A stretch of 64,000 nt of DNA from a virus. Positions 2-31,432 of the stretch are shown one piece after another; position 1 is the first letter of the stretch, and the number at the start of each line of letters is the position of its first letter. Location: positions 8,522 to 72,521 of the IMG/VR virus record IMGVR_UViG_3300008116_000173; one strand, 5' to 3'. A model generated the notes under the pieces. The model was not told the DNA's origin. It worked only from the letters and a program-made list of their open reading frames with translations, and made no database searches. Both the position numbers and the translations under genes were made by a program.

Positions 2-3000
2 AATAAATTACCTTTTCTTGAAGAAGCTGCTGCTAAAAATCCTAAATATGCAGCTGATTACATTAATGTTTTAGCTAACATGATGTATTTTGAAACATCT
101 AAACAGATGTTTTATGTAGAACAAATAAGTAAACTAAATGCTCAAATTTTAGATATAGATAACAGTGATAAAAGATTTTTACCACAGAATGAAGCTTTTC
201 GTGAAAAATTTGTTAAACAAATTGAATCATTAGAAAAACTATTATCAGAATCTAAAGAAAATTATAAAATTTTGTTTGATGAAAATGAACAAAGTAAAGC
301 ATATGATGAATATATAAAAGATAGAAAAGAAGAAGAAAATTTAGCACAACAAGCACAAGCTGAAGTTGATGCTGTTAATAATGAATTTGATCCTGTTAAT
401 AATCCTCAAGGTGCAGCTAAAGAACAAGCAGCTGCTGCAAGTAATGTTGCTGAAGATCTTAAAAATGAATTTGGTAATACACAAACTAATCCACCAACAC
501 TTAATGAAATATTAAATCAAAGTCAAGGTGACCGTGCACCTGCACCTACATTAAGTGATGTATTAAATCAAACTGCTCAACAAACTCCTGTTTCTACAGA
601 TGCTAAGAAAGCTGATATAGAAAAAAATTATTTTATAGTTACAATGTCTGGCTCTAGAACTATTGAGCAATTAAAATCAGAAAAAAATCCTGATTTTATA
701 GGAGACTATGAATTTTTAGATTTAGGAGATGGTTTAGTAGCATGGAAAACACCTAAAGATCCAAAATCAACAATTCAACAATATTTAATTGCAGATACTA
801 AATCAAATAGTAAATTAATACATAAAACATCTAAAGATGTAAAAGGTAATTTTGCAAGAATAAATGAACCTAATGTAAAAGCAGATGCTAAGTCTAGTAA
901 TGATAATTATGAATTAAGATTAAATAGATTAAATGAAGCTATTTCAAAAATTAATAATGCAGAACTAGCTGCTTTAGAAGGTAGTAAACCTGCTGAACCA
1001 ATTGCTACTCAAACACCTGTTACATCAACTGTATCTGATGAAGATCAAGATGAAGTATCTAAACAAATAAATAATGTATCAGTTTATTCTCATACTGATG
1101 ATTATGATAATGTTGATAAAATACCTTTAAACTCAATAGAAGGTAAAATAAAACAACTCTGGAATGATTTCAGAATGCTTTTATTTAAAGGTAAAAAAAT
1201 AGGTAAACAATATTTATTTGATCGTAATGAAAATGGTTTGCCTAATTATGAAAATAAATCAGGTATTGATGTTACTGCTTTAAATAATTTAAGAAAAGGT
1301 GATACTGTTAGATTTGAATCACGTCCTTTATCTGTAGATCCAGATGCTATTGCTATATTAGATTTAAATAATAAACTAATAGGTTGGGTTAGGGCTTCAG
1401 CTAAAAAACAATTAGAACAATTAAAAACAAATAATCAGTTAAATACTGAACAAGCTCAAACACTTCAACAATTTGAAGAATGGCGTACAACATTACTTAA
1501 TAAACTTAAATCAGGTGAAGAAGTATATAGTACAGTTCAAGAAAAAGGTACAGGTAACTTATACACTAAAACTATATTATTACCTACAGGTCAACAGATT
1601 GTAGATGCTAATATAGATATATTTAATTCATTTAGAGAAAAAGATACCATACAAAGTAAACCTATATTTGTATATGCAAGTAAAAAAGATGTTACAGGTA
1701 GATCAAAATTAGTATTACCTGAAACAACATTTACACCTGAAGAAAATGCAGCTATTCAAAATAGATTAGAAACATTAAATAAATATGATTTAAAACCAGG
1801 TCGTGTATTTAAATTAATTAAAGATTTAAATGATGAGTGGAGTTTAATGCCATTATATGCTAATAATATTACTGATGATATTTTTAAAGATATAGTTGAA
1901 ATATTAAAAAATACAGATAATGAATCTGATATTCAAATACTTAGTCGTGATTTAAATAAATATATTTATAGTACTACTAATGATAATAAATCAGCACCAT
2001 TATTAATTAAGAAAAATCAAATTAATCAAATTGTTTTTTATTTAGGTACTAAAAGTTTTACATTAGATGATATAAAATCAAAACCTGAAATTTGGAAACA
2101 AGTTAAAGATATACTTAAAAAACAAAAACAAAATATAGAGGTAGCAAACCTTAATCAATCATTTCAACAACAAGAGTATGCTAAAAACAAAACCTTGTTA
2201 ACAAATGTTAATTTATATGAAGGTGAATATTTTATACAACCTTATGTATCTTACGTAACAGATTTTAAAATTAACATAAATCCTAAACCTGTAACTACAA
2301 CACCAGCTGCAGCTAGTGCTCAACCTAGTACTAATCAACAACAAGTTGATAGGGCTGAACGTTTAAAACGTGCAGCAGCTAGGTATAAAAATCCAGATAC
2401 TGAAGGTGCAGCATCAGTTAGACCTGATTATAGTAAATATAATGAAAAGCAATTTAAAGCCTTTTTAAAGAAGAAATTACCTCAGCTTAGTATAGCTAAC
2501 CAAGACCAATTAAATGCTCTTAGAGGGCTTCTAATTGATCCTGTGGGGTATTTTAAAGGTAACCTTATATATTTATTTAAAGGTGCTGGTAATTTAACAG
2601 CTTACCATGAAGCATTTCACGGTGTATTTAGGAATTTATTAACAGTAGCTGAGCGTGAAAATATAATTAATGAAGCTAAAAGTAAGTATAAAGAACCTAC
2701 AAAAGAAGATTTAGATAACTTACAAAAACGTTTAAACAATAATTATACTACTGAACAATTAACTTATTTATATTACGAAGAACAATTAGCTGATGATTTT
2801 GCAATTTATACTAATGATAAAAACAACCGTAGCTTACTTAAAAGAATTACAGATGCTATTAGAGCTATATTTGATAAAATACTGTCCTATTTTGATTTAT
2901 TTGAGAGTGCTAATACCTCAAGTATAAATGATGTATTTGATGCTGTAAATGAAGGTAGATTTAAACAAAGACAATCTATAAGTAATAATGTAGTTAATTT

Positions 3001-6000
3001 ACCTTTGTTTCAAGAAGGTGCTTATTCACCTAAAGCTAAATTAAATATTGGTTTAGCTGATAGAATTAAAGTTGTATCATCATTAGCTGATAACTTTTTA
3101 GCTTTATTGAATCAACGTATAGTTAATGATAAATATGCTGATGTAAGTAAAAAAGATTTATTTAATGGTATATATGATGAATTATACAATCAATTAAATG
3201 AAGCTTTTGATTTAAGCGATTCAGATTTACTTGGTAATGTTATATTAAATTATGCTGATTTAATTAATCAGGATGTTAAAACTAATTTAAAAGAACGTGG
3301 TGTACTTGATAATTTTGATTATGAATTTATTAATAGTGAAGAACGTAATCCTGAATCAAAATCAACATTAACTAATGATGATAAATTAACATTAGCTGTA
3401 TCTGAAACTGAAGAAACTCAAATTAAAGAAGGTAAAGATTCTAAAGGATATAGAGAACAAACTTCTATTTCAGGTTTAACTACTGCATCTGCACGTATTA
3501 AATTATTTTTATCAGCTATACCTGTTTATGAAGAAAATGAAAATGGTGAATTAGTTTATGAAAAAAATGAATTAGGTTTACAAAAATATCATGATTTTAA
3601 ATCATTATATTATTATATAGAAAAGAACTTAATTGATAAATATACTTTTGAAGAACAATTAGCAGTGTTAAAAAATTTAACATCTTCTAATCCTGCTTTA
3701 ATAAGTGTATTAAATAAACTTCAAGTTAATCCGCCCTACATGAGTGCTGAAAGATTTGAAATGTTACAAAATGATTTTAAAACTAATTTTAGTAAACAAC
3801 AACTAGTATACACATTAGTTAAACATTCATATAATCCTGCTAATAATACTATTAGTTTTAAAATAATAGATGCTAATAGAAATAATTTACCTACTAAATT
3901 AAAAGAAAGTTGGAAAAATAGTTATACAGTTAATGTATCTGAAAAAGGTTTATCACAACCAATTAAATTAGAAAACACTCTTAAAAAAGAAATTAAAAAA
4001 CTTGATAATGAAAATGGTGCTTTAGATGTTGATGTTATCAGTTCATTGCTTAAAACTATTCATATTGATTTAAGTAAAAAAACTATAGAAGCTAATGCTG
4101 ATAGTAAAGTATTTGCAAGGGATATAAATGTTGTATTATCATGGTATATTAAAAATAATAATACTAATTATGATGCTGCTACAAGGATAGCTATTGAAAA
4201 TTTAATTAAACTTGAAACAGCTGTAATGATAGAAATGCATTCACAATCATTTATTGATGGTGAAGGTAATAATATCTGGACTATACAATTACCATCTGAA
4301 TTAAGTAAGTTTTTAGCTAAAGTTAAAAATCCTCAAAAACGTGAACGATTTATAAATGATTTCTTTAAAGATGTTTTTTATAAAAATTCTAATTTACTTA
4401 ACGAATTACAACGTAATTCTAAATTTGCTGAAATATTTTCAATATCTTATTTAGATTCATTTAAAGATGAAATAGGTGTTAAAAAAGGTATTGGATTTAC
4501 ATCATTATCACCAAGAGATTATTTAGCTATGAAAATAGCTTTATTTAATAACCTTGAGGTTAATAGTGAAGATCGTTTTACAATGCCTGTAAATAAATAT
4601 TTATATATTGTACCTGCTGATAAGAGTATGCAAGCCATTGTAGACTCTACATCATTTGATGTTTTCTTTGCACCAAACAATATTGAAGTAAGTACCAATA
4701 GTAAAATCATTGAGTCGTTTTATAATATATTTTTACAAGAAGCTAAACGTATAAATAAGTTTAATAAAATAAAAAATAGTTTTTTAACTGAAGGTTCACA
4801 ATCAAAATTTAAACCTACATTGCTTAATGAGTATGGTGTATTTAGTAAAAAAACATATCAAAGTGATTTAGTACAAAATTTATTAAATAAATATAATACT
4901 GAAGGTACATTAACTAATGAAGAATATGCACAATTAGCCAATAAAATGGATGGTCAAGCATTTAAATTTAATTATTTAAATAATGATTATTTTACATTTG
5001 CTAAAAATTTACCACAACAAACTAAAGAGTTAATTAAAAATACATTAGAAAATAGTTTACTTACTGATGATATGCTTGAAAAATCTTTAGCTGCGCAAAA
5101 AAATATAATTAAAAAAGAGTTAGCTTCATTTGTATATAAAACTTATGAAATAACTTTAAAAGAGTGGGAAAGTAAAGGCATAATAACTAAAAATAAAAAT
5201 AATGAATATGTTAATTCATTAGTTCAATTACCTTCTGTAAAAACAACTACTAGTGTAGATCAACGTATTAAAAATTTAGCATTAAAATATAGTGCTAATT
5301 ATTTATTACACAATATTGAACTATCTAATATGTTTAACGGTGATGTATCTCAATATAAACCTAATGATTTACAAAAACGTACTAATCAGTCACAAAGTTT
5401 TATGACTGATGGTAAATTTAATAATCCTGTAATAAGAACTAAAGTAAATAAAGATGTTATACATGATTATTCTTTAGAATCAGATTATACTAACATGGTT
5501 GATGTACTTAAACAATTAGGTGTATCTGATGAACGTATAAATGAAATATTAGATCCATATAAAAAGACTAATGTAACAGATGCTCAAGTAATAATTCATC
5601 CTGAATTTTTTAAACTTATTCATTATTCACAAGGTACTTGGACACCTGAATTAGAAACAGCTTATAACATAGCTGAAGGTATAATACCTGGTGATGCTAA
5701 AAAAAGTGTACAAACATTATTACGTGGTTTTAAACCATTTTATTTTGGTAAACGTTTTGATCCTGTAACTGAAACATGGTATTATGAACAAGTTAAATGT
5801 TCTATGTTTCCATTATTTAAATCTTATACAGATATTAATCCATTATTTGCTTTAAAACGTGAAGAAATGGAAAAAGATAATATAGATATGATAGCTTTTG
5901 AATCATCATTCAAAGGTGCTATAGGTTATAGAAGTGATTTTTTAGATGATAATAAAACTATATTAGAATTAGATGTTAATAATTTTGGTATTCAACAAGC

Positions 6001-9000
6001 TAACCCTGATCATACTACTGAAGGTAATGATTCATTACGTCAGCTTAAAATGATTTTACCAGGTACTATTGACACTAATGTTAGTTATAATGGTAGATCA
6101 GGTGCTGATATATTAGATGAAATATTATCACTTGAAGCTGCTAATTTAAAAACTGATTTAATTAAATTAACTAAATTATTAAATAATCCTTCGTCACAAG
6201 CTGAGTTTAATAGCTTTATTCAAGAAATGATTACTAAGCGTGGTGCTTATGAAGTATTAGTTAATTTTTTAAGTGTTGATGAAAATGGTCAATATATTTA
6301 CCCATTAGATAGTGGTATAACAAGTACTAAAGTACAAGAATTATTATCTAGTGTATTTACTTCTAAAGTATTAAAACAAAAATTTAATCATGGTGGTTCA
6401 TTAGTACAAGCTACTAGTTTAGGTCTTAAGTTTAGTAATTTAAGTGAACAACAAAAAAACCTTACACCTGAATTATTAGCTAAACAACGTAAATTAGAAT
6501 GGTTTAAACCAAACATTCAAACTGGTCAAATAGGTTATGCAGAATGTATTATGCCTGCATCAGCTAAAAAATTCTTTGATGAAAATGGTTTTTTAAAAGA
6601 TATAAATAATATACCTGATGCATTAAAAGAATTTATAGCTTATCGTATACCTACTGAAGGTTTACATTCAACAATGGCTATTAGAGTAATTGAATTTTTA
6701 CCTAAAGAATTAGGTAATTTTATATTATTACCTTATCATGTAACTACACAATTTGGTGCTGACTTTGACTTTGATAAAATTTATTTCTTTGGTAGAGAAT
6801 TTACTACAAGTGTAAATAAGAAAACAGGTAAAGTAACTTACAGAATACCTGAAATGAATTATGATGAAACTGAGTATGCTACTGAACAACGTTATAAAGA
6901 TTATGTATATTCTGTATTACAAGATAAAAATAATGAACTTTATTATGAAGATGTTATTACTGAATATGAAAAATATTATGGTGAACCAATAGCATCATTA
7001 TCTAAAAATGAAAAAATACAAGTTTTAGTAAGTGAAAACATACTAATGACACTAGATAAATTTAGTAAACGACCTATAGAAGAACAAAATACTAAAGCAG
7101 CTAGGAATAATCGTATAGTTGATAATTATCTTAATATTATTACATCTATTGAAAACTTAACTAATATTATTGCACCTTCAAGTTTTAAAGACATTGCTGA
7201 TTTTAAAAATAATTATTTTGGTGAAAATGAAAAAGTTAATTTCTTTGCTGATTTTACACAAAATAATTATAAAAATCGTAACCATACAGGTAGGATATTA
7301 AAAGGTATATGGGCTTTACATTTAACAGGTCATTCATATGCTCGTATATCAGGTTTATCAACTAAACAAAATGTAAATGCTCAAGGTTTTGTAGATTATG
7401 GTAATTCAGTTAATCTTGAAGGTGGTATTACTGAAGGTAATAATCATAGAAATGATTTTTCAAGATTATATAATGATGAAGGTAAATTAATAGCTCGTGA
7501 GTTAGGTAAAGTGATGGCTGCTGTATTAGATGACCTTAAAAATCCATTACTTGAAAGTTTAAATATTAACCAATATACAACACATGCGTTAGCTGCTATT
7601 CTTAGGGCAGGTTATTCTATGGAAACTATGTTATTGTTTTCAAGTCAACCTGCAATAACTAAGTTTTCACAACAGTCTATAGATAATTCAAGTGCTTTAT
7701 CTAAAAAAACTGAACGTTTTGACATTGAAAATTTAAAAGTATCTTATATTAAAATATTAAAAGATATCTATAATAAATATGAATATCAAGATAATCCTGA
7801 TATTAAAAGACTTATGGATACTTTAAATACAAATATACCTATTACAAATGCTGAATTAAAGGATATTTTAACTAATTTTACTAATGACGCTAATGGTAAT
7901 TTAATTAATAAAGTTACTGGTAAAAAACCTAGTGTTGAACAAGCTATGAAATACTATCATGTTCAGGTTAATGTTTTAAAACAAATGGAAAACTTAATTG
8001 CAATAGGTGATCAGTTTAAAAACTTAAATAATTTTTATACTATAAATAAAGAAGTAGGACCTCAAATAGAAGATATTATTGAACAACAAGATTTGTTAGT
8101 TCAAATATCTAAAGATGATATATTACGTGATTATGAAATTGATTCAATGGCTACTTTATATCAAACATGGGATACTCATTTAAATGCTTTAGATTACTTT
8201 TCTAAATACTTTCCTTATAGTAGTGAGCTATACATGGGTATTAAAAGTCAAATAGCTTTAATTCAAAAAAATAAAAGTATTAGCGGTATTAAAACTGATG
8301 ACCGTAAATTAATAAATAACTTTATTAGGACTTATTTAGATTATTCTTTTGAGAAGTTTGTTGATATACCATCTCAATCTGAAGAATTATTAAGATCATT
8401 CCCATCAATGGTTAAACAAATTACTAAAGGTACATCAGGTTTAAAGATAGATGATATATCATATGAAGAATTAAGTAAAAATCCTTTTATAGCTAATATT
8501 GAAGTTAAATTCAATAAAAAAACTGGTTTAAATCAAATTCAATTAAAAAGTGGTCAGTTAATACCTCAAGTAAAAGATAGTATCTCTAATGGGCTTATAT
8601 TGCTTTATAACAATAAAAAAACAAGAGGGTTAGCTGAAAATTTTGTTAAATATGCATTTTTAACTAGTGGTTTTTATACTGGTGTTAATATGTATTCAAA
8701 TCTTATAGATCCAAGTATATTAAAAGCTATGGAGTATACAAATTATAGGATGCAAACAACTAATGATTTAGTTAATGGTACTTTTACATTAGAAGTTGAT
8801 AATAATAGATTAATAGATCAATTAGTTAGAAATTATCCTTATAACTTTACTAATATATTTGATAGTAATTTATTTGATGAATCAACTAAAAATGGTTTAC
8901 CTAATAAATTAACACTTAATGAAGAAGCTTTAAATGAAGCTAATATGAGTGGTTATATGTTTGATACTAAAATTGGTATTTTAACACCACGTTATATAAT

Positions 9001-9952
9001 GGTACGTCAAAAAGATGCTGAATCTACTAAAAAAGAAGGTTTAACATTATATAAATTAGAAAATAATAATGAAGGTTTTAAATATGTTAAAATAAATGAA
9101 TTAGGTAAAAAAGGATTTTTAATAGAAGTAAATCCTTTAGAAGATATTGTTAATAGTGTTGTTAACAGAAATTTAGAAAAAATACCTGATGCTATACTTC
9201 AAGATCCACCTGATGGTGTTGAAAATGATATGATGCCTGAATTAAGTATGTCAAAAGATACTGAATATGATATGGAAGCTAGTATACTTGGTAAATCACA
9301 AGTTGAATTTGATGCTATAGATAAAGCTATTGCTGCTAAATCTATTACTCAACCTATAGTACAACCTACTGAAAGAAAAACTTATTCAGGAAAAGTAACA
9401 AGTTTACAGCCTAATCAAATATTTGTATTTGGAAGTAATCCTCTTGGTATTAATGGAAATCCTTCTAAAGGCACAGGAGGAGCAGCTTTAGTTGCGTATA
9501 ATATTGCAGGTGTTAAACAAGGTGAAAAAATGGATAATAAGTTATCTGATTCAGGAAAAGCTTGGGGAATTACAACAGTAAAAGCTCCAGGACAAAAAAG
9601 AAGTAAAACTCCTGAACAAATAACAGAAGGTATTAAAAAATTATATGAATATGCTAAACAAAATCCAACCAAAGAATTTTTAATTTCTGATTATTCAGGA
9701 ACAAATCTTAATGGTTATACAGGTCAAGAAATGGCAGATATGTTTGTTAATGCAGGATCAATACCTTCTAATATAGTATTTAATAACAACTTTGATAAAT
9801 TAATTACTACTCAACCTACTACTCAACCTACTGCACAAGATAATCAAATATTAAATTCACCACAATTTAAAGAATTTTACAATAAAGAATTAGAAAGTAA
9901 TCCTAATTTAACTGTAGAAGAAGCTTTAGATTATTATAAAAAATGTAAATAA
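2..9952 (+). CDS. Giant virion-packaged RNA polymerase of crAss-like phage (5'-truncated by the window), with zincin-like domain and accessory inserts
   Basis: The frame is open from nt 2, upstream of the ATG at 80. Catalytic-type motif QFGADFDFDKIY (~6749-6784) is preceded by AYRIPTEG, as in crAss-like two-barrel vRNAPs. AYHEAFH...YEEQLADDF zincin motif at ~2600-2800. More than 3290 aa. Confidence 0.9.
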   Translation, partial: NKLPFLEEAAAKNPKYAADYINVLANMMYFETSKQMFYVEQISKLNAQILDIDNSDKRFLPQNEAFREKFVKQIESLEKLLSESKENYKILFDENEQSKAYDEYIKDRKEEENLAQQAQAEVDAVNNEFDPVNNPQGAAKEQAAAASNVAEDLKNEFGNTQTNPPTLNEILNQSQGDRAPAPTLSDVLNQTAQQTPVSTDAKKADIEKNYFIVTMSGSRTIEQLKSEKNPDFIGDYEFLDLGDGLVAWKTPKDPKSTIQQYLIADTKSNSKLIHKTSKDVKGNFARINEPNVKADAKSSNDNYELRLNRLNEAISKINNAELAALEGSKPAEPIATQTPVTSTVSDEDQDEVSKQINNVSVYSHTDDYDNVDKIPLNSIEGKIKQLWNDFRMLLFKGKKIGKQYLFDRNENGLPNYENKSGIDVTALNNLRKGDTVRFESRPLSVDPDAIAILDLNNKLIGWVRASAKKQLEQLKTNNQLNTEQAQTLQQFEEWRTTLLNKLKSGEEVYSTVQEKGTGNLYTKTILLPTGQQIVDANIDIFNSFREKDTIQSKPIFVYASKKDVTGRSKLVLPETTFTPEENAAIQNRLETLNKYDLKPGRVFKLIKDLNDEWSLMPLYANNITDDIFKDIVEILKNTDNESDIQILSRDLNKYIYSTTNDNKSAPLLIKKNQINQIVFYLGTKSFTLDDIKSKPEIWKQVKDILKKQKQNIEVANLNQSFQQQEYAKNKTLLTNVNLYEGEYFIQPYVSYVTDFKININPKPVTTTPAAASAQPSTNQQQVDRAERLKRAAARYKNPDTEGAASVRPDYSKYNEKQFKAFLKKKLPQLSIANQDQLNALRGLLIDPVGYFKGNLIYLFKGAGNLTAYHEAFHGVFRNLLTVAERENIINEAKSKYKEPTKEDLDNLQKRLNNNYTTEQLTYLYYEEQLADDFAIYTNDKNNRSLLKRITDAIRAIFDKILSYFDLFESANTSSINDVFDAVNEGRFKQRQSISNNVVNLPLFQEGAYSPKAKLNIGLADRIKVVSSLADNFLALLNQRIVNDKYADVSKKDLFNGIYDELYNQLNEAFDLSDSDLLGNVILNYADLINQDVKTNLKERGVLDNFDYEFINSEERNPESKSTLTNDDKLTLAVSETEETQIKEGKDSKGYREQTSISGLTTASARIKLFLSAIPVYEENENGELVYEKNELGLQKYHDFKSLYYYIEKNLIDKYTFEEQLAVLKNLTSSNPALISVLNKLQVNPPYMSAERFEMLQNDFKTNFSKQQLVYTLVKHSYNPANNTISFKIIDANRNNLPTKLKESWKNSYTVNVSEKGLSQPIKLENTLKKEIKKLDNENGALDVDVISSLLKTIHIDLSKKTIEANADSKVFARDINVVLSWYIKNNNTNYDAATRIAIENLIKLETAVMIEMHSQSFIDGEGNNIWTIQLPSELSKFLAKVKNPQKRERFINDFFKDVFYKNSNLLNELQRNSKFAEIFSISYLDSFKDEIGVKKGIGFTSLSPRDYLAMKIALFNNLEVNSEDRFTMPVNKYLYIVPADKSMQAIVDSTSFDVFFAPNNIEVSTNSKIIESFYNIFLQEAKRINKFNKIKNSFLTEGSQSKFKPTLLNEYGVFSKKTYQSDLVQNLLNKYNTEGTLTNEEYAQLANKMDGQAFKFNYLNNDYFTFAKNLPQQTKELIKNTLENSLLTDDMLEKSLAAQKNIIKKELASFVYKTYEITLKEWESKGIITKNKNNEYVNSLVQLPSVKTTTSVDQRIKNLALKYSANYLLHNIELSNMFNGDVSQYKPNDLQKRTNQSQSFMTDGKFNNPVIRTKVNKDVIHDYSLESDYTNMVDVLKQLGVSDERINEILDPYKKTNVTDAQVIIHPEFFKLIHYSQGTWTPELETAYNIAEGIIPGDAKKSVQTLLRGFKPFYFGKRFDPVTETWYYEQVKCSMFPLFKSYTDINPLFALKREEMEKDNIDMIAFESSFKGAIGYRSDFLDDNKTILELDVNNFGIQQANPDHTTEGNDSLRQLKMILPGTIDTNVSYNGRSGADILDEILSLEAANLKTDLIKLTKLLNNPSSQAEFNSFIQEMITKRGAYEVLVNFLSVDENGQYIYPLDSGITSTKVQELLSSVFTSKVLKQKFNHGGSLVQATSLGLKFSNLSEQQKNLTPELLAKQRKLEWFKPNIQTGQIGYAECIMPASAKKFFDENGFLKDINNIPDALKEFIAYRIPTEGLHSTMAIRVIEFLPKELGNFILLPYHVTTQFGADFDFDKIYFFGREFTTSVNKKTGKVTYRIPEMNYDETEYATEQRYKDYVYSVLQDKNNELYYEDVITEYEKYYGEPIASLSKNEKIQVLVSENILMTLDKFSKRPIEEQNTKAARNNRIVDNYLNIITSIENLTNIIAPSSFKDIADFKNNYFGENEKVNFFADFTQNNYKNRNHTGRILKGIWALHLTGHSYARISGLSTKQNVNAQGFVDYGNSVNLEGGITEGNNHRNDFSRLYNDEGKLIARELGKVMAAVLDDLKNPLLESLNINQYTTHALAAILRAGYSMETMLLFSSQPAITKFSQQSIDNSSALSKKTERFDIENLKVSYIKILKDIYNKYEYQDNPDIKRLMDTLNTNIPITNAELKDILTNFTNDANGNLINKVTGKKPSVEQAMKYYHVQVNVLKQMENLIAIGDQFKNLNNFYTINKEVGPQIEDIIEQQDLLVQISKDDILRDYEIDSMATLYQTWDTHLNALDYFSKYFPYSSELYMGIKSQIALIQKNKSISGIKTDDRKLINNFIRTYLDYSFEKFVDIPSQSEELLRSFPSMVKQITKGTSGLKIDDISYEELSKNPFIANIEVKFNKKTGLNQIQLKSGQLIPQVKDSISNGLILLYNNKKTRGLAENFVKYAFLTSGFYTGVNMYSNLIDPSILKAMEYTNYRMQTTNDLVNGTFTLEVDNNRLIDQLVRNYPYNFTNIFDSNLFDESTKNGLPNKLTLNEEALNEANMSGYMFDTKIGILTPRYIMVRQKDAESTKKEGLTLYKLENNNEGFKYVKINELGKKGFLIEVNPLEDIVNSVVNRNLEKIPDAILQDPPDGVENDMMPELSMSKDTEYDMEASILGKSQVEFDAIDKAIAAKSITQPIVQPTERKTYSGKVTSLQPNQIFVFGSNPLGINGNPSKGTGGAALVAYNIAGVKQGEKMDNKLSDSGKAWGITTVKAPGQKRSKTPEQITEGIKKLYEYAKQNPTKEFLISDYSGTNLNGYTGQEMADMFVNAGSIPSNIVFNNNFDKLITTQPTTQPTAQDNQILNSPQFKEFYNKELESNPNLTVEEALDYYKKCK

Positions 9953-9968
9953 TAATAACTTATAAATT

Positions 9969-12900
9969 ATGTCACAAAGTTGTTTTAATTTTAGTCTTAA
10001 CGAAAATAAAAGAATAGCTGAAGATTTTGGAGAAATAGAAACTCAAAAATTAATTGAGTTGTATTTTCCAGATAAAAATCCTGCTAGTTATAATGAATTT
10101 ATAAGTAATGATAAAGTAAAAGAAGCTTTAGGTTTAAAAGGTATAACTGAAGCTAACAAACTTTTAAATACTAATTATAAAAAAGAAATTAGTAATCAAC
10201 AATTAATTAATTTAAAAAGTATTATTAGTCAAACTAATAATAAATTAAAAGGTGAAAATAAAAACATAGTATATAAATTATACAATGTTAAACAATTAGG
10301 TGAATCTGATAATTATACTTGGGGTATACGTGAAATAAAAGGTAATTTAGATGTTGATGCTAAAATTGAAAGAGCTTTAACTAGAGGTAAAACTGAACAA
10401 GCTAAAAATTTAAAAAATTTAAATGATAATAATCAATTAACATTATTTCAATTATCTAATAAACAAATTATTAAACCAGGAGTACAAGAACTATTTGATT
10501 CTAATCCTGAATTAGCTAATCAAGTATATGAAGCTTTAGGGTTTAAAAATCAAACACCTAAAAGATTAACTAAATCTGATAGAACTTTATCTAAGTATAT
10601 ATCTATTGGAAAATCTGAATTTGAAAAAGCTCAAAAAGAAGCCAATACCAAAAGTTCTGATTTTAATCATAATGGATTTAGATGGTATGAATCTGAGGAT
10701 GAGTTATTTGGTGGAAAAGATTGGAGAAAAGATGAATTACCACAAAGTAATAGTGGAACTTTTGAGGATGATTACTATAAGTTACAAGTAGAATTTTCTC
10801 AAAAAGCAAGAAGTTTTCATCCAGAAGATTTTGATGAAATGGGTTTTGAGTTATTGTATGATTTACCTCAAGATGAATTATTTCAAGCTATCAGATATTG
10901 GTATAAACCTTTAGAAGGAATTGAATTTACAGAATTAGCTGATATATATGACCCAAATTCTTCTTATAATAAAAAACATCCAGAAGATATTAAATCTAAA
11001 GATGCTTCTGATTTAAGAAAGTTTATTGAAAAAGAAATAGGAATTAAAAATAAACTATACCCTTCCTTAAACAACCAAATAACCCCACAACAAAAACAAA
11101 AAGCTCTACAACTATACTCTCAATACTTAGATACTATATTTCCTGAAAGAACAAATATTGTTTATTCTACATCAACACTAGATGATGGAAGTAATTTTTT
11201 AACAGATGATATAAATTATTCAAAAAAATATAAAGGTATTACAAAACCATATATTGTAAATTTAAAAAATTCTTTAAAAACTAATTATGGTATTAATATT
11301 GCAATTTCTAATATATTATTTGAAGAAAATCCTAATATAGATGTAATTTATGGTAAAGAAGGAGAAAGAATAAGTTATAAAGATATATGGGCTGAAATTC
11401 AACAAGATCCTGATTTAACACAAAATGAAGCTATAAAATTATTATCATCTAGACCAACAAGAAATATTAATGTTTTTGTTGTTAAAAATAAATCAGAAAA
11501 ATATGAATTAAATACTAAACAAGATATTGAAAATTTTAAAAATTTTATTAATAAAGAAAATAAATTAAATAATTTTGATTTAGATATTGATGAAAATCTA
11601 ACAAAAAAAGAAAAATTAACAAAATTTTTTACTCAATTTGGTTTTAAATTTGAAGAAGGAGATTTATCAACAGATTTATTAAAAAAAATAATATATGTTA
11701 ATAAAAATGATATTGAATTATTTATTAATAATTCTGTAAAAGCTTTAAGTCAACTTTTATTAGCTAATACTAATATAGATTTTAATAAACTTAAAAATTT
11801 AATTGAAAATACTGAAGAATTTAAAAGTTTATTAAATAATTCAACAACTGAATTTAAAAATAATTATTATCATATAAACAGTGGTAATAAAATTCCAATT
11901 AATGATTATAGAATTTATCAAAAAGATTATGAAAATATAAAAAAACAAGTAATTGAAAAATATTTAAAAGAATCTTTATTAGATAATAAAAATTTAAAAC
12001 CTTTACACAAATTAATTATTGATTTTATTAATTGGTTAAAAAATTTATTTGAAACTGCTACAAATTTAAAAGATATTACTGATAGTTTAATACAACAAGT
12101 TTTTGAAAATCAAAAAGAAATTATTATTAATTCTAATCTTTTAAAAAATAAAGAAAAAGTTAATTTAAATAAAGCTTTAAAAGAAACTAAACATGGTAAA
12201 AATATAATTAAAATATTTGGTGATTTTGGTTTAATTCTTACTGGTAGTATAAGTGCATCTGAACAAGGTACTATTTGGAGAAAAATTGGTAAACTTTTAC
12301 ACGATATTGATTGGATTGTACCTAAAGATTTTAATAAAGATTATTTACAAAAATTATTTGATGAATTTCCTGGAGCAACATTAATAAGACAATTTGATAG
12401 TCCTGGTTATTACACAAGAACATATGTTGTTCCACCAAAAGGATACACTATTGCTAATTTAGAATATTTTGAAAAAGAAAAATATAATGAAAAATATATT
12501 AAACAATATGATTTGTTAGATCAAAATAATAAAATAGTTAATAATTATAGAAGATATTATGATGTAACACCTGAAGGAAAAGTTTACGAAACAAAAGAAG
12601 TTTATAATGAAAATTTACAAAATGTTGATGTAAATTTAGATCCTGTATTAGTTGATTTTTTTGAAAATAAACAAAATTTAGAATTTAAACCTTATACTGT
12701 AAATGTAGAAGGTGTTAAACTACAATTATCAAATTGGTTATCTTCTTTTTCTGAAAAATTAAGATACGGTAGAGCTAAAGATTTATTAGATTATGCTTTA
12801 TTTATACCTAATGATTTAAATCAATCAAAAGATAATAAATCATTTCAATTAGAACCAACAATACAAAAAGATCCTACTGAAATTATTCAACAAGTTGATA

Positions 12901-15900
12901 CTTTATTAAATGATTATATTAATAACAATAATATAAAAGTTGAATTTAAAGATAGGGTTTTAGATGATAATGGTAATGATGTTGTAGCTTTTTACAATAG
13001 TGTTAAAAAAGTTATTGAGATTAATCAAAATCAACGTGATAGTAAAACATTACCTGAAGAATTAGCTCACCATTTACATTTAGCTTTAGGTAAAGATCAT
13101 ATACTTGTTAAACGTGCTTTTAACCTATTAAATAGGGTTGATTATAAAGCTATGTTAGGTCAAGAATATGTTGACTTATATAAAAATAATACAGATTTAT
13201 TAAAATTTGAAATATTAGGTAAATTAACTGCAGCAGCAGTACGTGGTGAAAAGATACCTTTACAAATGAATACTGTTGAAGGTAATAAGCTTTGGGATAC
13301 TATTAAACGTATGATTGATGCTGTTATAAAGTTATTTAAACCTGATGTAAATGTTCAAAAAGAACTTGATAATTTAAGTAATCAATTTGCTAATATGCTT
13401 AAATCAGGTGTTAAAGTTGATAGTGAAAAATCAATTAATGCTAAATTATATCAAACTAATAAAGATTTAATTAATTTAAGTTCTAAAATTAAACCTGCTT
13501 ACGTTTATTATACAACATTATCAACAGCACTTAAAAAGAAACAAAAACAATTTAGTGCATTATCTGAAGAATATAAAATTATTCAAAATCAAATTAATAC
13601 TATTGATATATCATTAAGAGAATTAATTCAAAATGAAAATGAATTACCTTTAATTAATCTTGTTGAAGAAACTATAACAACTGTAGCTCAAAACATTAAT
13701 GATTTTGAAATTAATTATTCTAAAGGTATAATGCCTTCAGAAAAAAATATTATTGAAGCTGTTGAAATACTTAAAAAGTTTTCAGGATTTCCTGGTACAG
13801 AAAGTAAAATTAATGCTTTAAAAGCTAGATTAATTAATTTTATTAAACCTTATTTAGCAAATAAAGCTTCTGAGGTATTAGGTAAACCTGTTACTGAGGA
13901 AGATATATCTGCTGTAACAAGTGATATTAATGTACTTGAAAAGAATTTTGGTACATTAGCAAGAACTGAATTTACATTATCACGTATGCTTGGTTTATTA
14001 ATTAAACAAAAGCAAAATACTATAGAACGTGAAAATAAGCAAGCTTTTGAACAAGTACAAGCTGCTACTAATAAATTAAAAGATTGGGCAGCTAGCAAAG
14101 GTATGTCTTTAGAGCAAGCTTTTGATGTATTACAACAAGAATACAGAGGTACTAGAATATTAACTAAAGAATATACTAGTGAATTTTATAAGTTAATTAA
14201 TGATACTTATAAATTAGATCCTGAAAAAGCTAAAGAAGCACGTGCTAAAATAGCTATTTGGGATGCTGCTAATAAAAAATGGATACCTAAATCTACTAAG
14301 TATAATAATCCAAATTACCAATTAATACATAAAAAAGGTAATGAAGATTTATTAAACTATTATAATTTCTTTAAAGATCAAATTCAAAAAATATCTGATA
14401 ATACATTACCTATTGAATTAGATGATTATTTTATACCTAATGTGTATGAAGAAACACTTTTAGATATATTAAAAACTGAAGATGCTGTTGGTGATAAATT
14501 AAAAGATAGTGTTATCCATATATTAGAATTTAATCCATTTGAAAAAATGGGTACTGTTGATAAGCAGATGGATGTTATTTATGATGCTGATTTGATTGGT
14601 GATAAAATACCTTTAAAATACATTCAAGCACTACCTGAAGATAAGAAATCTAAAAATTTAAGTGCAGCATTATTAAAATTCATGTATTTTGCTAATAGTT
14701 ATAATCACATGAATGAAATATTACCTATTGCTAACTTAGTTCAGGAAACTATAACAGACCCTGATACTAGTAAAATACTTCAATATGGTAACCCTAACTT
14801 AAACGTTGCTGCTAAATCTAATATAGTTGACATGGTTAAAACTATAAAAGAAATGCAGATTTTAGGTAAGATGCGTAAAGAGAATGAAATGTTTAATGTA
14901 TTAGGTTATAAATTAAACTATGGTAAATTAATTGATTTTGGTTTACAGTACACTTCTAAAATACGTTTAGGTTTAAATCCATTTGCTGCATTAGCTAACG
15001 TTGCTGTAGGTAACTTAGGTAATATTATTGAAGCTGCAGGTGGTAAATACTTTACATTAAGTGAATATTTTAGTGCTTTAGGTACCTTTACAACTGAAGC
15101 TAAAAAAGTAGATGGATTGATTAATCTATTTAACCCTTTGATGGAAATGGATGATTATGAAAATCTTAAAAAATTAGGTGTTGGTTCTAAAGAATACCGT
15201 GAAAAAATAAATGGTTTGTTATATGCACCTACACGTATGGGTGAAAAACAAATGCAAACTACTACTATGATTGCTATATTAAAGCATAAAAAAGTTGACA
15301 TTAAAGATAAAAAAGGTAATGTAACTGGTAGTATATCAATGTTAGATGCTTTTGATAGTAATGGTAAATGGGATACTGCTAAAATGGGTTATGAATTAAA
15401 TGAACAAGAAATTAATAAAATAACCAATAGAGTACATGGTGTTAACCAAATGATTCATGGTAGGTATTCAGCTAAAGATGCTGCTGCAATGCAACAATAT
15501 GCTATGTATAGGGCTTTAATGCAATTTAAAAAATGGATACCAGCTGCTGTTGAACAACGTTTTATGGCTAGACGTTATGACCCACTATTAGATGAAGAAA
15601 CTGAAGGTAGGTATTGGGCTTATGCTAAAGGTCTTAGACTTATGATGGCTAAATTAAAAAATGATGCCAAAAAGATTGAAGAAAATAAGTTTACTGAATT
15701 AGATTGGTATAACATGCGTAGAAATGCTATGGAAGTACTAATGATAGGTTTAATGTTTGGTTTAACTACTTTCCTTAAAGCTGGTGATGATGATGATGAA
15801 TTAAAGCGTAATGCAAGTTATAAGACTTATATGCGCCTTTTAAACAGCGTTAGTGGTGATTTAATGCAATGGTATTTACCAGGTACATTTTTAGATAAAG

Positions 15901-16139
15901 CTATGGTATTACCTGTAACTAAAACATTAAGGTCACTTGAAAGAACTATACAGTATACACCTTATATGTTTGGTGATTATACTAGTGATGCTTCAGGTAC
16001 TTATGAAGCTGGTGAACGTAAAGATGAAAATAAATTCTGGAGTAATTTCTTTAATAATGTACCTTTTGGTAGTACTACTGCTGACATGTACAGAACATGG
16101 TTTAAAGATGATGTAAGTTACATACCTCGTAATAGGTAA
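9969..16139 (+). CDS. Giant virion (ejected/cargo) protein of the RNAP gene block, with inserted domains
   Basis: 2056 aa directly after the vRNAP. LPEELAHH degenerate zincin-like motif, internal NTase motif TGS...HDIDW, and a C-terminal region (MQFKKWIP...RF, EGRY, hydrophobic helix) resembling large phage ejection proteins. Confidence 0.75.
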   Translation: MSQSCFNFSLNENKRIAEDFGEIETQKLIELYFPDKNPASYNEFISNDKVKEALGLKGITEANKLLNTNYKKEISNQQLINLKSIISQTNNKLKGENKNIVYKLYNVKQLGESDNYTWGIREIKGNLDVDAKIERALTRGKTEQAKNLKNLNDNNQLTLFQLSNKQIIKPGVQELFDSNPELANQVYEALGFKNQTPKRLTKSDRTLSKYISIGKSEFEKAQKEANTKSSDFNHNGFRWYESEDELFGGKDWRKDELPQSNSGTFEDDYYKLQVEFSQKARSFHPEDFDEMGFELLYDLPQDELFQAIRYWYKPLEGIEFTELADIYDPNSSYNKKHPEDIKSKDASDLRKFIEKEIGIKNKLYPSLNNQITPQQKQKALQLYSQYLDTIFPERTNIVYSTSTLDDGSNFLTDDINYSKKYKGITKPYIVNLKNSLKTNYGINIAISNILFEENPNIDVIYGKEGERISYKDIWAEIQQDPDLTQNEAIKLLSSRPTRNINVFVVKNKSEKYELNTKQDIENFKNFINKENKLNNFDLDIDENLTKKEKLTKFFTQFGFKFEEGDLSTDLLKKIIYVNKNDIELFINNSVKALSQLLLANTNIDFNKLKNLIENTEEFKSLLNNSTTEFKNNYYHINSGNKIPINDYRIYQKDYENIKKQVIEKYLKESLLDNKNLKPLHKLIIDFINWLKNLFETATNLKDITDSLIQQVFENQKEIIINSNLLKNKEKVNLNKALKETKHGKNIIKIFGDFGLILTGSISASEQGTIWRKIGKLLHDIDWIVPKDFNKDYLQKLFDEFPGATLIRQFDSPGYYTRTYVVPPKGYTIANLEYFEKEKYNEKYIKQYDLLDQNNKIVNNYRRYYDVTPEGKVYETKEVYNENLQNVDVNLDPVLVDFFENKQNLEFKPYTVNVEGVKLQLSNWLSSFSEKLRYGRAKDLLDYALFIPNDLNQSKDNKSFQLEPTIQKDPTEIIQQVDTLLNDYINNNNIKVEFKDRVLDDNGNDVVAFYNSVKKVIEINQNQRDSKTLPEELAHHLHLALGKDHILVKRAFNLLNRVDYKAMLGQEYVDLYKNNTDLLKFEILGKLTAAAVRGEKIPLQMNTVEGNKLWDTIKRMIDAVIKLFKPDVNVQKELDNLSNQFANMLKSGVKVDSEKSINAKLYQTNKDLINLSSKIKPAYVYYTTLSTALKKKQKQFSALSEEYKIIQNQINTIDISLRELIQNENELPLINLVEETITTVAQNINDFEINYSKGIMPSEKNIIEAVEILKKFSGFPGTESKINALKARLINFIKPYLANKASEVLGKPVTEEDISAVTSDINVLEKNFGTLARTEFTLSRMLGLLIKQKQNTIERENKQAFEQVQAATNKLKDWAASKGMSLEQAFDVLQQEYRGTRILTKEYTSEFYKLINDTYKLDPEKAKEARAKIAIWDAANKKWIPKSTKYNNPNYQLIHKKGNEDLLNYYNFFKDQIQKISDNTLPIELDDYFIPNVYEETLLDILKTEDAVGDKLKDSVIHILEFNPFEKMGTVDKQMDVIYDADLIGDKIPLKYIQALPEDKKSKNLSAALLKFMYFANSYNHMNEILPIANLVQETITDPDTSKILQYGNPNLNVAAKSNIVDMVKTIKEMQILGKMRKENEMFNVLGYKLNYGKLIDFGLQYTSKIRLGLNPFAALANVAVGNLGNIIEAAGGKYFTLSEYFSALGTFTTEAKKVDGLINLFNPLMEMDDYENLKKLGVGSKEYREKINGLLYAPTRMGEKQMQTTTMIAILKHKKVDIKDKKGNVTGSISMLDAFDSNGKWDTAKMGYELNEQEINKITNRVHGVNQMIHGRYSAKDAAAMQQYAMYRALMQFKKWIPAAVEQRFMARRYDPLLDEETEGRYWAYAKGLRLMMAKLKNDAKKIEENKFTELDWYNMRRNAMEVLMIGLMFGLTTFLKAGDDDDELKRNASYKTYMRLLNSVSGDLMQWYLPGTFLDKAMVLPVTKTLRSLERTIQYTPYMFGDYTSDASGTYEAGERKDENKFWSNFFNNVPFGSTTADMYRTWFKDDVSYIPRNR

Positions 16140-27541: not shown

Positions 27542-29095
27542 TTATAAGTTTTTTAAGGATATATTATTATCTAATTCATTATCAACATACTCATCATTTT
27601 CAGTAAATTCAGCATCATTAAACTTAGCTATACGTTTATCAACCCAAGCTATAAGTTTATTTGCTTTCTGTCCATATACTTCAGTAAGTATTTTTGCTAA
27701 TGATAGATTACTATTTTCATAAATAAAACGTTTATGATTTTCAACAATATCTACTAAAGCCATACAGATTAACAACCAGTTTTTAATCTTAATATAAGAT
27801 GTAGAACCAGGTGCTGGTCTGAATTCAATAGTATAAATCTTGTTTTTCCTAGTATTAAATAATGCAGGTACAAAATTTACCCAGCAATAACGTGCTGAAT
27901 CATGATCATAACCACATTTATAACCTTTAGGATGGTCATTCTTTTTATTTACTTTTTTACTAGGATTATTATTTGCGCTAACATATCTAACAATAGCTTC
28001 ATAAGTAACATCTATAGCATAATTCCTATTAAAGCTTTGTAAGTCTTTAATATTAAAATTTATCATAGGACGACTATCTAAGAATCTACAATATGTATTA
28101 TTACGACGAGATTTAGGTAACATTGTAAATATCTCACGTTGTAATTTATGATACAAATAATACATTAAAACAATATTTTCTTTGTTAAAGTTAATATTGG
28201 ATAAATGCACATGCACACCACATTGATGATTTACTAAACAACGTTTAGTTAACTCATTACAAAGCTTTTTTAGTTTAAGTAAACCACGGTCACCCATTAA
28301 TACATCAGTAACATATTCCTTACCATAAGGATGATTGTTTTCAGCATCACGTAATGAACCATCATGAACACTAGAACAATTTAATGGTGCTAGTACATGT
28401 GCAGGTACTAAACCACTAATAGTTTCTATTTCTAAACCAAAACTATAACGTTTACCATAAGTATTATGATATGTTGTAGGTAGATTGTTATTATCACTTG
28501 GTGCATTAAATTTAATACCATCAACACGCATTTGTTTTACAAATGGTTCAATTTCAGATTTAAGTTTAAATATACCTGTATAATAATCTTCAGCGTAAAA
28601 TTTATTAAAAGTTGCATTAGCAAGTAAACTTGGTTTACCTAGATATGGTTTATTAGATTGTATACGTATATAACCTAATCTAAAAGCTTGATCATGATCA
28701 CAAGTATACTTTATTTCAGAATCAATTATAGGATAATTCTCAATAACAGCTGTTGCATTAAATTTAATAATATAACGATCTGATTCAAAATAATCTGTTA
28801 CAATATTAGGATCATCAGGCCTAGCATAAGAATCATGAAGTTGTATTAAATCATTTGAATATTCTACAACTTCACCTGTATATAACATTACCTCATTTTC
28901 ATCTAAATCAGGTTCATAAGGATTATTGTCATCATCATGTACTTCTGTATACTCATCTTCTGAAGGGTTAAACCAAAGATCATCAAGAGTTGTAGATATT
29001 ATATCAGTAGATGTGGGTACTACATCTGGTTCAGGAGCATCTGGTTCAGGTGGTGTTAAATTTTCAGGTATTGAATGATTTGGAATTATTGGCAT
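27542..29095 (-). CDS. Putative amidoligase (Amidoligase_2 / glutamine synthetase-like COOH-NH2 ligase)
   Basis: FGLEIET, HDGSL, KEYVT, CGVHVH, RYCWVN, TIEFR; acidic/Pro-rich N-terminal extension. Confidence 0.85.
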   Translation of the reverse strand: MPIIPNHSIPENLTPPEPDAPEPDVVPTSTDIISTTLDDLWFNPSEDEYTEVHDDDNNPYEPDLDENEVMLYTGEVVEYSNDLIQLHDSYARPDDPNIVTDYFESDRYIIKFNATAVIENYPIIDSEIKYTCDHDQAFRLGYIRIQSNKPYLGKPSLLANATFNKFYAEDYYTGIFKLKSEIEPFVKQMRVDGIKFNAPSDNNNLPTTYHNTYGKRYSFGLEIETISGLVPAHVLAPLNCSSVHDGSLRDAENNHPYGKEYVTDVLMGDRGLLKLKKLCNELTKRCLVNHQCGVHVHLSNINFNKENIVLMYYLYHKLQREIFTMLPKSRRNNTYCRFLDSRPMINFNIKDLQSFNRNYAIDVTYEAIVRYVSANNNPSKKVNKKNDHPKGYKCGYDHDSARYCWVNFVPALFNTRKNKIYTIEFRPAPGSTSYIKIKNWLLICMALVDIVENHKRFIYENSNLSLAKILTEVYGQKANKLIAWVDKRIAKFNDAEFTENDEYVDNELDNNISLKNL

Positions 29096-29097
29096 AA

Positions 29098-30621: not shown

Positions 30622-30622
30622 A

Positions 30623-31432
30623 TTAAATTAATTGTTTAATGTTAGTAATATTTAAATTATAATCTTCAATAATATCGGTAGCTATCCGTTGATTGCATGA
30701 ATTAACAGCATCAATTATATCACCAGGGTTAGTAATAATACCACCTTGATTAACAAAATTAATAGCTGCTTGTGTTTGGTCATAAACCCAGCTTATAAGT
30801 TGGTCATTTTGTATAAAATAACTACTTAATACACGGTATTCTACACCATATTTCTTCATCCTAAAATCACCAGCTTTACCATACATTTTCCTACGTTCAT
30901 TATCTGGGTCAATAAGTACACTAGGTACACCTAGGAATAAATCCATAGCCCTGATAATATCAATAGAAGTTTGATCATTAGGATTATCATAACCCACATG
31001 AATATGCATACCAGTAGTACGTAATGTATAATCACTACGATCTACCTGATGTTCTTCAAATGACCATGCATCATATGATTTACTACAACCCATATGCTGA
31101 GCTGCAGGATTGCTTAAATCATCTTCATTAAAACGTGCTGAAGCTACATAATGAGGTATTAATTCTAAAGGCTTTAATACTGTTTCAGTAATATAATTCT
31201 TTACAAAATTAATACTATTAATAAATTCAGTTTTAGTTGTAGCTGGCGGTATTGTAAATTCTAATGCCACGTTATCTTCTTGTAAAGAATAGCCTATATT
31301 TTCTTCATTAATAGGGATAGGTTTTTCTTTTGTACCACCAACTAAACCACATACAGGTACATATTTACCATAAAGTGGTGAGTATAAAAATAATTCAGGA
31401 TCTGTACCAATTTTTGCGTTATTAATTTTCAT
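30623..31432 (-). CDS. phiEco32-like COOH-NH2 ligase type 2
   Basis: IGTDPELF, GGTKEKP, QEDNVALEF, LRTTGMHIHVG, RRKMYGKAG.FR.K.YGVEYRVLS. Confidence 0.9.
   Translation of the reverse strand: MKINNAKIGTDPELFLYSPLYGKYVPVCGLVGGTKEKPIPINEENIGYSLQEDNVALEFTIPPATTKTEFINSINFVKNYITETVLKPLELIPHYVASARFNEDDLSNPAAQHMGCSKSYDAWSFEEHQVDRSDYTLRTTGMHIHVGYDNPNDQTSIDIIRAMDLFLGVPSVLIDPDNERRKMYGKAGDFRMKKYGVEYRVLSSYFIQNDQLISWVYDQTQAAINFVNQGGIITNPGDIIDAVNSCNQRIATDIIEDYNLNITNIKQLI

Follow-up and report, generated by a model that had tools for sequence, protein, structure and literature searches.

A predicted pol-beta-fold nucleotidyltransferase domain in a giant, probably virion-packed protein of crAss-like phages

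We analysed a 64,000-nucleotide stretch of viral DNA (positions 8522-72521 of the 72,521-base virus record IMGVR_UViG_3300008116_000173; hereafter the window), in which a giant open reading frame (ORF) directly downstream of a DFDxD virion RNA polymerase ORF encodes a 2056-residue protein. We found that this carrier protein contains, at about residues 726-950, a domain whose predicted structure supports the pol-beta nucleotidyltransferase fold. The domain is real and intact and represents a new family, of a known fold and in a known kind of carrier, and it is very probably an active transferase. The best explanation as a whole describes a two-part unit (residues 546-950) with a catalytically intact pol-beta transferase that would be delivered by the virion, and takes the 3' end of RNA as the best guess for its acceptor. 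For this complete explanation, the chances of being right and of being wrong seem to us evenly balanced.

Motifs, conservation and fold of the domain

The carrier ORF, the domain and its motifs have the following positions in the window:

9969..16139, + strand: 2056-residue ORF (P0001) carrying the transferase domain, the counterpart of crAss001 gp49, an 'RNA-polymerase-associated' cargo protein of the virion (ORF list, translation, tblastn)
12144..12818, + strand: pol-beta-fold nucleotidyltransferase domain, about residues 726-950 (AlphaFold 2 (AF2) model, profile, VIA-align, Foldseek)
12237..12248, + strand: motif I, L-T-G-S (L757, G759, S760), invariant in 86 of 86 domains, at the end of strand 1 and the start of a helix
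12279..12311, + strand: spacer residue R771 and motif II, H-D-x-D (H778, D779, D781) (conservation, model strand 54-59)
12651..12662, + strand: VDFF strand with the third carboxylate, D896 (conservation, model strand 168-175)
12756..12791, + strand: C-terminal helix motif K930-x4-R935-x-K937-D938-x2-D941, invariant in 86 of 86 domains (model helices 198-208 and 211-219)

The first-pass annotation had recognised a nucleotidyltransferase domain at positions 12190-12810 from four amino acid strings. All four are in frame within nt 12231-12794 of the carrier ORF on the + strand: LILTGSISASEQG (residues 755-767, nt 12231-12269), LHDIDWIV (residues 777-784, nt 12297-12320), VDFF (residues 895-898, nt 12651-12662) and EKLRYGRAKDLLDY (residues 929-942, nt 12753-12794). 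No other ORF of at least 60 residues lies over 12190-12810 on either strand. The domain does occupy the proposed span, with profile and model limits that are slightly wider (12144-12818).

A word-indexed search with residues 735-960 returned 17 proteins of 1676-3537 residues, which were 52-71% identical to the query across the domain, except for one cluster at 100%; in these proteins the domain was found at places between residue 142 and residue 2795. A profile was built from 11 of the 17 (alignment A1) and compared with 1.84 billion cluster representatives, and 303 proteins were matched at E <= 0.001, 150 at E <= 1e-10 and 26 at E <= 1e-30. The family therefore comprises at least 303 clusters at 50% identity, and most of its proteins are 1000-6300 residues long, with the domain at varied positions. 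Rescoring of the listed proteins with A1 gave 91 full-length domains, from which six close relatives were removed; the other 85, all representatives of 50%-identity clusters, were aligned with the window copy to give 86 domains.

Twelve columns of this alignment were invariant (L757, G759, S760, H778, D779, D781, D896, K930, R935, K937, D938 and D941; 86/86), and R771 and F898 were nearly so (82/86 each). Identity to the window copy was mostly 28-38% (31-row alignment A2), and no decayed copy was seen among the 86. Because the named residues are invariant over such diverse domains, the motif pattern is under strong selection and is not a product of chance. The motifs had been described as intact, and every signature residue is indeed present in the window copy. 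In one related locus (L035, 2-9856, ORF residues 1054-1380), an insert of about 120 residues splits the domain between profile positions 109 and 111.

The fold was predicted with AF2. A single-sequence run on residues 711-977 was unusable (predicted local distance difference test score, pLDDT, 42.3) and was superseded by a run with alignment A2, which gave a pLDDT of 92.3 and a predicted template modelling score (pTM) of 0.87. Residue n of this model is residue n + 725 of the protein. G759-S760 are placed at the end of strand 1 (31-33) and the opening of helix 35-39, D779 and D781 on the next long strand (54-59), and D896 on strand 168-175. K930 and R935-D941 are placed on two C-terminal helices (198-208 and 211-219), and a beta-rich stretch of about 75 residues (model 79-154) separates the DxD strand from the strand of the third Asp.

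The model was compared with 48,161 representative chains using VIA-align, with the following results:

MenT1 (8an4): Z 9.7
ANT(2'') (4xje): Z 9.7
LnuA (4wh5): Z 9.5
TM1012 (2ewr): Z 8.8
TglT/MenT3 (6j7n/6y5u): Z 8.7
JHP933: Z 8.4
Megavirus poly(A) synthase: Z 6.9
5uvd: Z 6.5
MenT4 (6y56): Z 6.5
Family X polymerases, CCA-adding enzymes, terminal uridylyltransferases and CD-NTases: Z 4-5.5

The top six were all pol-beta nucleotidyltransferases, with 134-151 residues aligned at a root-mean-square deviation of 3.5-4.8 over about model residues 1-235. Nine of the best ten rows were nucleotidyltransferases, and the tenth was an AbiEi antitoxin. The best Foldseek rows against the PDB (TM1012, JHP933, 5uvd, TglT/MenT3 and MenT1) were also all nucleotidyltransferases, headed by 2ewr (TM1012) with E 3.4e-3 and a probability of 1.00. 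TM1012 was picked again when the family sequence profile was compared with PDB chains, at an E value (0.8) that is not significant alone, and TGS..QG..HDID was aligned residue for residue. Other sequence searches of the PDB with the domain gave nothing significant, and the viral structure library BFVD gave no match at E <= 0.001 and nothing informative.

Two of these structural results tell against the fold. According to the aligner's own note, models that lack a true match often reach a best Z of 7-8, so that 9.7 alone is modest, and Foldseek found no PDB match at E <= 0.001. We nevertheless assign the domain to the pol-beta nucleotidyltransferases, because the top rows are uniform, nearly the whole model is covered and the invariant residues are canonically placed; the assignment does not depend on Z alone. 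The AF2 model, the fold searches and the invariant residues thus agree with the pol-beta GS...DxD domain and later acidic strand proposed from the letters alone, and the proposed Foldseek check of a predicted structure finds the pol-beta fold present.

Nearest known enzymes and distribution of the family

We searched curated family models for the 31 members of alignment A2. The sole repeated match was DUF6036, a transferase family of function not known, which was found in 2/31 members at E 0.005. The other results count against placing the domain in a named family: PF08843 and PF10706 each matched 0/31 members, even at E up to 10, and NCBIfam and PHROGs gave nothing consistent among the same 31. 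Curated models also left the domain uncovered in 28 whole relatives and in 32 flanked segments, and PF08843 had no match in the whole phage record.

Dy et al. (2014, PMC3985639) describe the features of the DUF1814/AbiEii proteins as hG[GS]x15DhD with an Arg in the spacer, KLxAaxxR and a +DxxD pentad, and report that their mutation abolishes toxicity. To compare these with our domain, 23 natural PF08843 members were taken from genomes and aligned with A2, profile against profile, by hhalign. The GS/GG, DxD, motif III Lys and +DxxD elements were collinear, with TGS of the domain opposite KGG at motif I, and K930 and KDxxD opposite K and RDxxD. The global P was 0.0045, and the local score of 22.1 (P 0.023) was above all 22 controls (reversed template, 13.5; unrelated alignment, 10.9; 20 column shuffles, maximum 14.7). 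The hhalign probability, which was only 2-3%, speaks on the other side.

The domain shares with AbiEii/MenT the pol-beta fold (Z 9.7 for MenT1, 8.7 for MenT3 and 6.5 for MenT4), a long GS-to-DxD spacer with an Arg, a Lys-Arg motif and a +DxxD element. However, the details are different. The spacer has 18 residues, more than the 15 of AbiEii or the 9-13 of the general consensus. Motif III (K930-L-x-aromatic-x-R935, that is, K-x4-R) is two residues shorter than KLxAaxxR, and +DxxD follows two residues after the Arg instead of about 11. MenT1 and MenT3 have Thr or Ser two residues upstream of the first Asp of DxD, according to PMC10435456, whereas our domain has the invariant H778 before DxD. It also has the insert of about 75 beta-rich residues before the third-Asp strand, which sets it apart from AbiEii/MenT. 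The latter are free toxins of about 190-300 residues, whereas our domain is embedded in giant phage virion proteins and has no antitoxin partner: it is internal to its protein, its neighbours are the polymerase ORF and opposite-strand replication and nucleotide-metabolism genes, and no paired AbiEi/MenA gene is among them.

Taken together, the C-terminal K...R.KD..D looks like a compact equivalent of AbiEii motifs III and IV. The likeness to AbiEii/MenT that the first-pass annotation saw in these residues is borne out as a resemblance, since the motifs have collinear counterparts, but not as strict membership of PF08843: the model recognises none of the members and the profile-profile match is weak.

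ANT(2'')-Ia and TM1012 (PF10706) and LnuA are likewise small transferases of the pol-beta type, and their C-terminal part is helical (Z 9.7, 8.8 and 9.5). None of 151 sampled genomes yielded a PF10706 member. TM1012 would belong to PF10706 because the control genome, Thermotoga maritima, matched that family, and PF10706-bearing clusters were also a lead from the protein atlas. These enzymes are free-standing, with 156-175 residues in the matched chains, whereas our domain has about 225 residues inside proteins of 1000-6300 residues. We therefore describe the domain as a new, unnamed pol-beta branch near the small transferases, with DUF1814-like accessory motifs and outside the PF08843 and PF10706 models as they stand.

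The phage record contains one copy, that of the window (profile E 2.4e-75). A tblastn search of 50,697 GenBank phage records with the window domain and a central family member gave no match. Among species genomes (one per species, 185,579 species), the A1 profile matched nothing and A3 gave one match, on a 138,768-bp contig of a metagenome-assembled genome (L037); this phage-sized contig is binned with a bacterial genome and is likely of phage origin, so that the match would not be a cellular gene. Seven matches were short forms (117-457 residues), most of them fragments on contigs of 0.5-1.2 kb or without a contig on record, and none of the seven formed a bridge to a named cellular family. 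One of them, P0071 (453 residues), is a whole free-standing protein of helical module and transferase, a rare form, and lies on a 91.7-kb contig. The family is large and so far confined to uncultured crAss-like phages, and the literature searched for it yielded no account of a domain of this type in the virion proteins of crAss-like phages.

Carrier protein, its probable delivery and candidate acceptors

Two giant + strand ORFs occupy the left end of the window. The second is the carrier, and the first has the following position:

2..9952, + strand, 5'-open at the window edge, at least 3316 residues: upstream giant ORF, virion RNA polymerase (ORF list, motifs, synteny with crAss001 gp50)

The first ORF contains GADFDFDK at nt 6755-6778 and a zincin-like HEAFH (HExxH) at nt 2606-2620. 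A preprint (10.1101/2020.03.07.982082) describes the DFDxD motif of the crAss-like virion polymerase and a zincin-like protease in a neighbouring protein; both motifs fit this description, and we read the first giant ORF as the virion RNA polymerase.

The whole carrier protein had no Pfam or PHROG match, and domain scans of the window's own protein found no second recognisable enzyme domain in it. In a tblastn search of GenBank phages with the whole carrier, matches were confined to the C-terminal half and fell on Crassvirales proteins annotated 'putative RNA-polymerase subunit'. Residues 1010-1989 matched that of cr128_1 (23.3% identity, E 3e-17), and residues 1571-1943 matched crAss001 gp49 (22.3% identity, E 2e-9). 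In both crAss001 and cr128_1, the gp49-type gene lies directly 3' of the 'putative RNA polymerase' gene (gp50 in crAss001), which is the same order as in the window.

PMC10172136 reports that gp49, gp47 and gp50 were detected in crAss001 virions, gp49 by mass spectrometry, and assigns these proteins to a cargo zone of the capsid, from which they would leave in a partly unfolded state. For phi14:2, preprint 10.1101/2020.03.07.982082 counts the polymerase and the products of both adjacent genes among the virion proteins, and adds that some phages have them as a single fused polyprotein, for which cleavage is presumed. Our carrier resembles these proteins in its homologous C-terminal half and in its position after the DFDxD polymerase gene. 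These proteins are present in virions. The carrier differs in that a profile search did not find the transferase domain in their genomes. The carrier is thus probably a virion protein packed beside the RNA polymerase, and delivery of the transferase-bearing protein into the host is somewhat the better bet. By homology only (C-terminal half against crAss001 gp49 and relatives, 22-23%), the earlier idea of a virion protein ejected into the cell is supported.

Three features of the carrier can be recorded beside these results. A short, highly conserved peptide, IKPGVQELFDSNPELANQVYEALGF (residues 168-192, window 10470-10544), recurs at varied places in relatives, often directly after the transferase domain (P0005, P0007, P0008, P0018, P0019) or near the ORF N-terminus (P0009-P0011). 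A weaker look-alike stands at the end of the polymerase ORF (nt 9896 onward), and the peptide may be a marker of boundaries between modules, or of sites of cleavage or docking in these polyproteins. The P0003 cluster is otherwise 99.9-100% identical to the carrier but has 72 residues inserted after residue 283 (2128 against 2056 residues), which by sequence is an indel polymorphism of the N-terminal region. Just past the transferase unit there is a His-rich helix motif, PEELAHHLHLALG (residues 1030-1041, window 13056-13091), which is not a canonical HExxH and whose region had no family match.

The ORFs of 33 related viral loci were compared with the proteins of the window at E <= 1e-5. The transferase domain was placed as follows:

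7 of 33 loci: in the same ORF as polymerase homology
15 of 33 loci: in the ORF that immediately follows the polymerase ORF (a gp49-like part is also present in 4 of these 15)
2 of 33 loci: upstream of a gp49-like ORF
1 of 33 loci: upstream of the polymerase ORF
8 of 33 loci: no detectable link to polymerase or gp49-like genes

The domain was therefore within or beside polymerase or gp49-like genes in 25/33 loci. ORF boundaries varied: the domain can be in a separate protein of 594-885 residues (L003, L004, L011, L021), fused to the gp49-like part (the window) or within a protein of 5457 residues (L005). The 250 residues upstream of the domain formed one homology cluster in 33/33 cases (32 loci and the window; L035, with its split domain, was omitted), whereas the sequences downstream belonged to many unrelated groups. 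Thus, the conserved unit is residues 546-950 (about 405 residues), which consists of the transferase and an upstream module:

11604..12143, + strand: mostly helical module, residues 546-725 (upstream homology in 33/33, conservation profile, alignment A4)

The module had no match in the PDB or Pfam and is mildly basic (median isoelectric point, pI, 8.05, n=29). A complex prediction of module and transferase domain scored 0.07, which gives no verdict either way.

Effector-type domains occur sporadically in the giant proteins of relatives: ART-PolyVal (P0015, P0056, L005), NADAR (P0009), GNAT (L031) and YkuD (P0083), with SprT-like matches that were weak. Polyvalent proteins are also giant multidomain proteins with effector arrays that are delivered with DNA. 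Iyer et al. (2017, PMC5512222) describe their pol-beta transferase as a minimal four-strand, three-helix domain, related to NTox45 and fused to ArdC-N; their survey lists it for conjugative elements only, mainly of Firmicutes, and among transferases credits phage-type polyvalent proteins with RelA/SpoT. Our domain is larger and different from that minimal version, and is borne by phages.

If the domain works as its superfamily does, D779, D781 and D896 would bind metal ions for two-metal catalysis, G759-S760 with K930, R935 and K937 would hold the triphosphate of a nucleoside triphosphate (NTP), and the NTP would donate a nucleoside monophosphate to an acceptor hydroxyl. Judged from its homologues in crAss001 and phi14:2, the protein would share the capsid with the polymerase and would enter the cell along with the DNA, possibly once the large proteins have been cut into parts, to act in the first minutes of infection. 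For the acceptor, our best guess is the 3' end of an RNA, either the acceptor ends of host tRNA, as with the MenT toxins, or the transcripts of the co-injected polymerase, and the purpose would be host takeover or counter-defence. We favour such an acceptor because of the DUF1814-like motifs and the MenT matches, but only tentatively. In one relative (P0085), a 2H phosphoesterase (tRNA_lig_CPD) about 70 residues after the transferase domain fits RNA-end chemistry. The fuller claim, that environmental crAss-like phages inject with their virion polymerase a dedicated RNA 3'-end nucleotidyltransferase of an unnamed family, acting on tRNA ends or on first transcripts, is more doubtful still. If it is true and tRNA ends are extended, a toxin-type activity would be turned against the host, or ends damaged by host defences would be mended.

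Several further results weigh against the explanation as a whole. The domain is acidic overall (median pI 5.5, n=86), which disfavours a nucleic-acid-binding surface. MenT1, ANT(2'') and LnuA tie (Z within 1), so that RNA and small-molecule acceptors are not distinguished. If a phage prevented the charging of every tRNA on entry, translation of its own genes would suffer. The case for virion packaging is made by 22-23% identity to gp49-type proteins together with synteny. When the complete records of crAss001, cr128_1 and phi14:2 were searched with the profile, no copy was obtained at E <= 1; phi14:2 and crAss001 are cultured model phages and cr128_1 is an uncultured relative, and the domain is accordingly not covered by any experiment.

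Lying beside the polymerase, the domain may have a role in transcription. The transferase could work with the co-packaged polymerase, adding untemplated 3' tails to early transcripts or regulating the polymerase complex by nucleotidylation, and this is a possible but unlikely account. Such an enzyme would be the bacterial-virus counterpart of the virion poly(A) polymerases of poxviruses and giant viruses, a parallel that we also hold to be improbable; tailing of first phage transcripts, if true, would give the first bacterial-virus analogue of those enzymes. The account draws on the 25/33 loci in which the domain stands at the junction of the polymerase and the gp49-like module, in 7 of them in the same polypeptide as polymerase homology, on the structural match to the Megavirus polyadenylate synthase (Z 6.9), and on a viral cluster of the protein atlas in which 11% of members have Poly_A_pol_cat, which is a lead only. 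However, poly(A) polymerases, terminal uridylyltransferases and CCA-adding enzymes reached Z 4-7, against 8.4-9.7 for the small transferases. In bacteria, moreover, 3' tails on RNA generally mark it for decay. The profile search gave no copy of the domain in phi14:2 or crAss001, and if their virion polymerases work as described in preprint 10.1101/2020.03.07.982082, they do so without needing it.

A small-molecule or protein acceptor may likewise be considered, given the near-equal scores of ANT(2''), LnuA and TM1012 and the acidity of the domain. The acceptor could be a host protein, in an AMPylation-type takeover comparable with that by ADP-ribosyltransferase effectors, or a hydroxyl-bearing small molecule such as a defence metabolite or signal; we consider this improbable, though not negligible. 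ANT(2'') (Z 9.7), LnuA (9.5) and TM1012 (8.8) tie with MenT1 as the best folds, and TM1012 is also best in Foldseek and appears in the sequence-profile search. An acidic pI is more typical of small-molecule transferases than of RNA enzymes, and the domain is nearer to the former. ART-PolyVal and GNAT domains lie close to the transferase in some relatives, and protein substrates were predicted by Iyer et al. (2017, PMC5512222) for the pol-beta transferases of polyvalent proteins. However, C-terminal K...R and +DxxD motifs are described as features of the AbiEii/DUF1814 lineage (PMC3985639), whose characterised members act on tRNA according to PMC10435456; PF10706 matches none of the 31 members, and no specific target can be named.

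That the domain is undelivered or non-catalytic in the host, with a role in the producing cell or the particle (assembly, packaging or structure) and nucleotide bound without transfer, is very improbable: ejection is read from homology only and the neighbouring regions are helical, but a complete metal triad with triphosphate-binding residues, invariant in 86/86, is the pattern of an active enzyme, and proteins homologous to the carrier are virion cargo for which ejection is presumed (PMC10172136). Synthesis of a cyclic nucleotide signal is the least supported role, since the model fits CD-NTase structures (CdnE 6wt8, Z 4.6; cGLR 8gjw, Z 4.5) far less well than the small transferases (8.4-9.7).

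Among these readings we keep the RNA 3' end as the leading acceptor. Few parts of the very abundant crAss-like phages are as poorly understood as the giant proteins of their transcription block, and beyond polymerase and protease motifs these proteins had almost no assigned functions; a compact module of catalytic type is now delimited in one of them. Its family, in at least 303 clusters and unnamed in curated databases, has a fixed place beside the injected polymerase. The unit of about 405 residues is small, sharply delimited, widespread and cloneable, and offers an entry to the early effects of phage infection. The unit also adds to the effector domains catalogued for delivered phage proteins; the 2017 survey reports pol-beta transferases of such a kind only for conjugative elements (PMC5512222). 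With it, the phage might attach chemical tags to molecules of the host or its own when infection starts. Should tRNA or mRNA prove to be the acceptor, an offensive or repair function of a virus would be tied to the chemistry of defence toxins (AbiE/MenT).

Other features of the window

The G+C content of the window is about 21-37%. A crAss-like gene set is present, with large terminase, portal and major head protein on the + strand at 44-53 kb, and with DNA polymerase, primase, ribonucleotide reductase and nucleotide-metabolism genes on the - strand.

In the polymerase ORF, HEAFH and GADFDFDK stand in one reading frame, so that the protease and polymerase proteins of phi14:2 (gp65 and gp66) appear fused here. 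The C-terminal segment of the same ORF (residues 3128-3271, window 9383-9814) is compact and contains YSGKVTSLQPNQIFVFGSNPLG...GTGGAALVA...; it had no match in Pfam or the PDB by sequence, and looks like a separate globular domain that is possibly nucleotide-binding.

On the - strand, three neighbouring genes at 27542-31432 match the families of phage amidoligase, glutamine amidotransferase-type enzyme and COOH-NH2 ligase. They could be a small modification or biosynthesis cassette inside the replication block.

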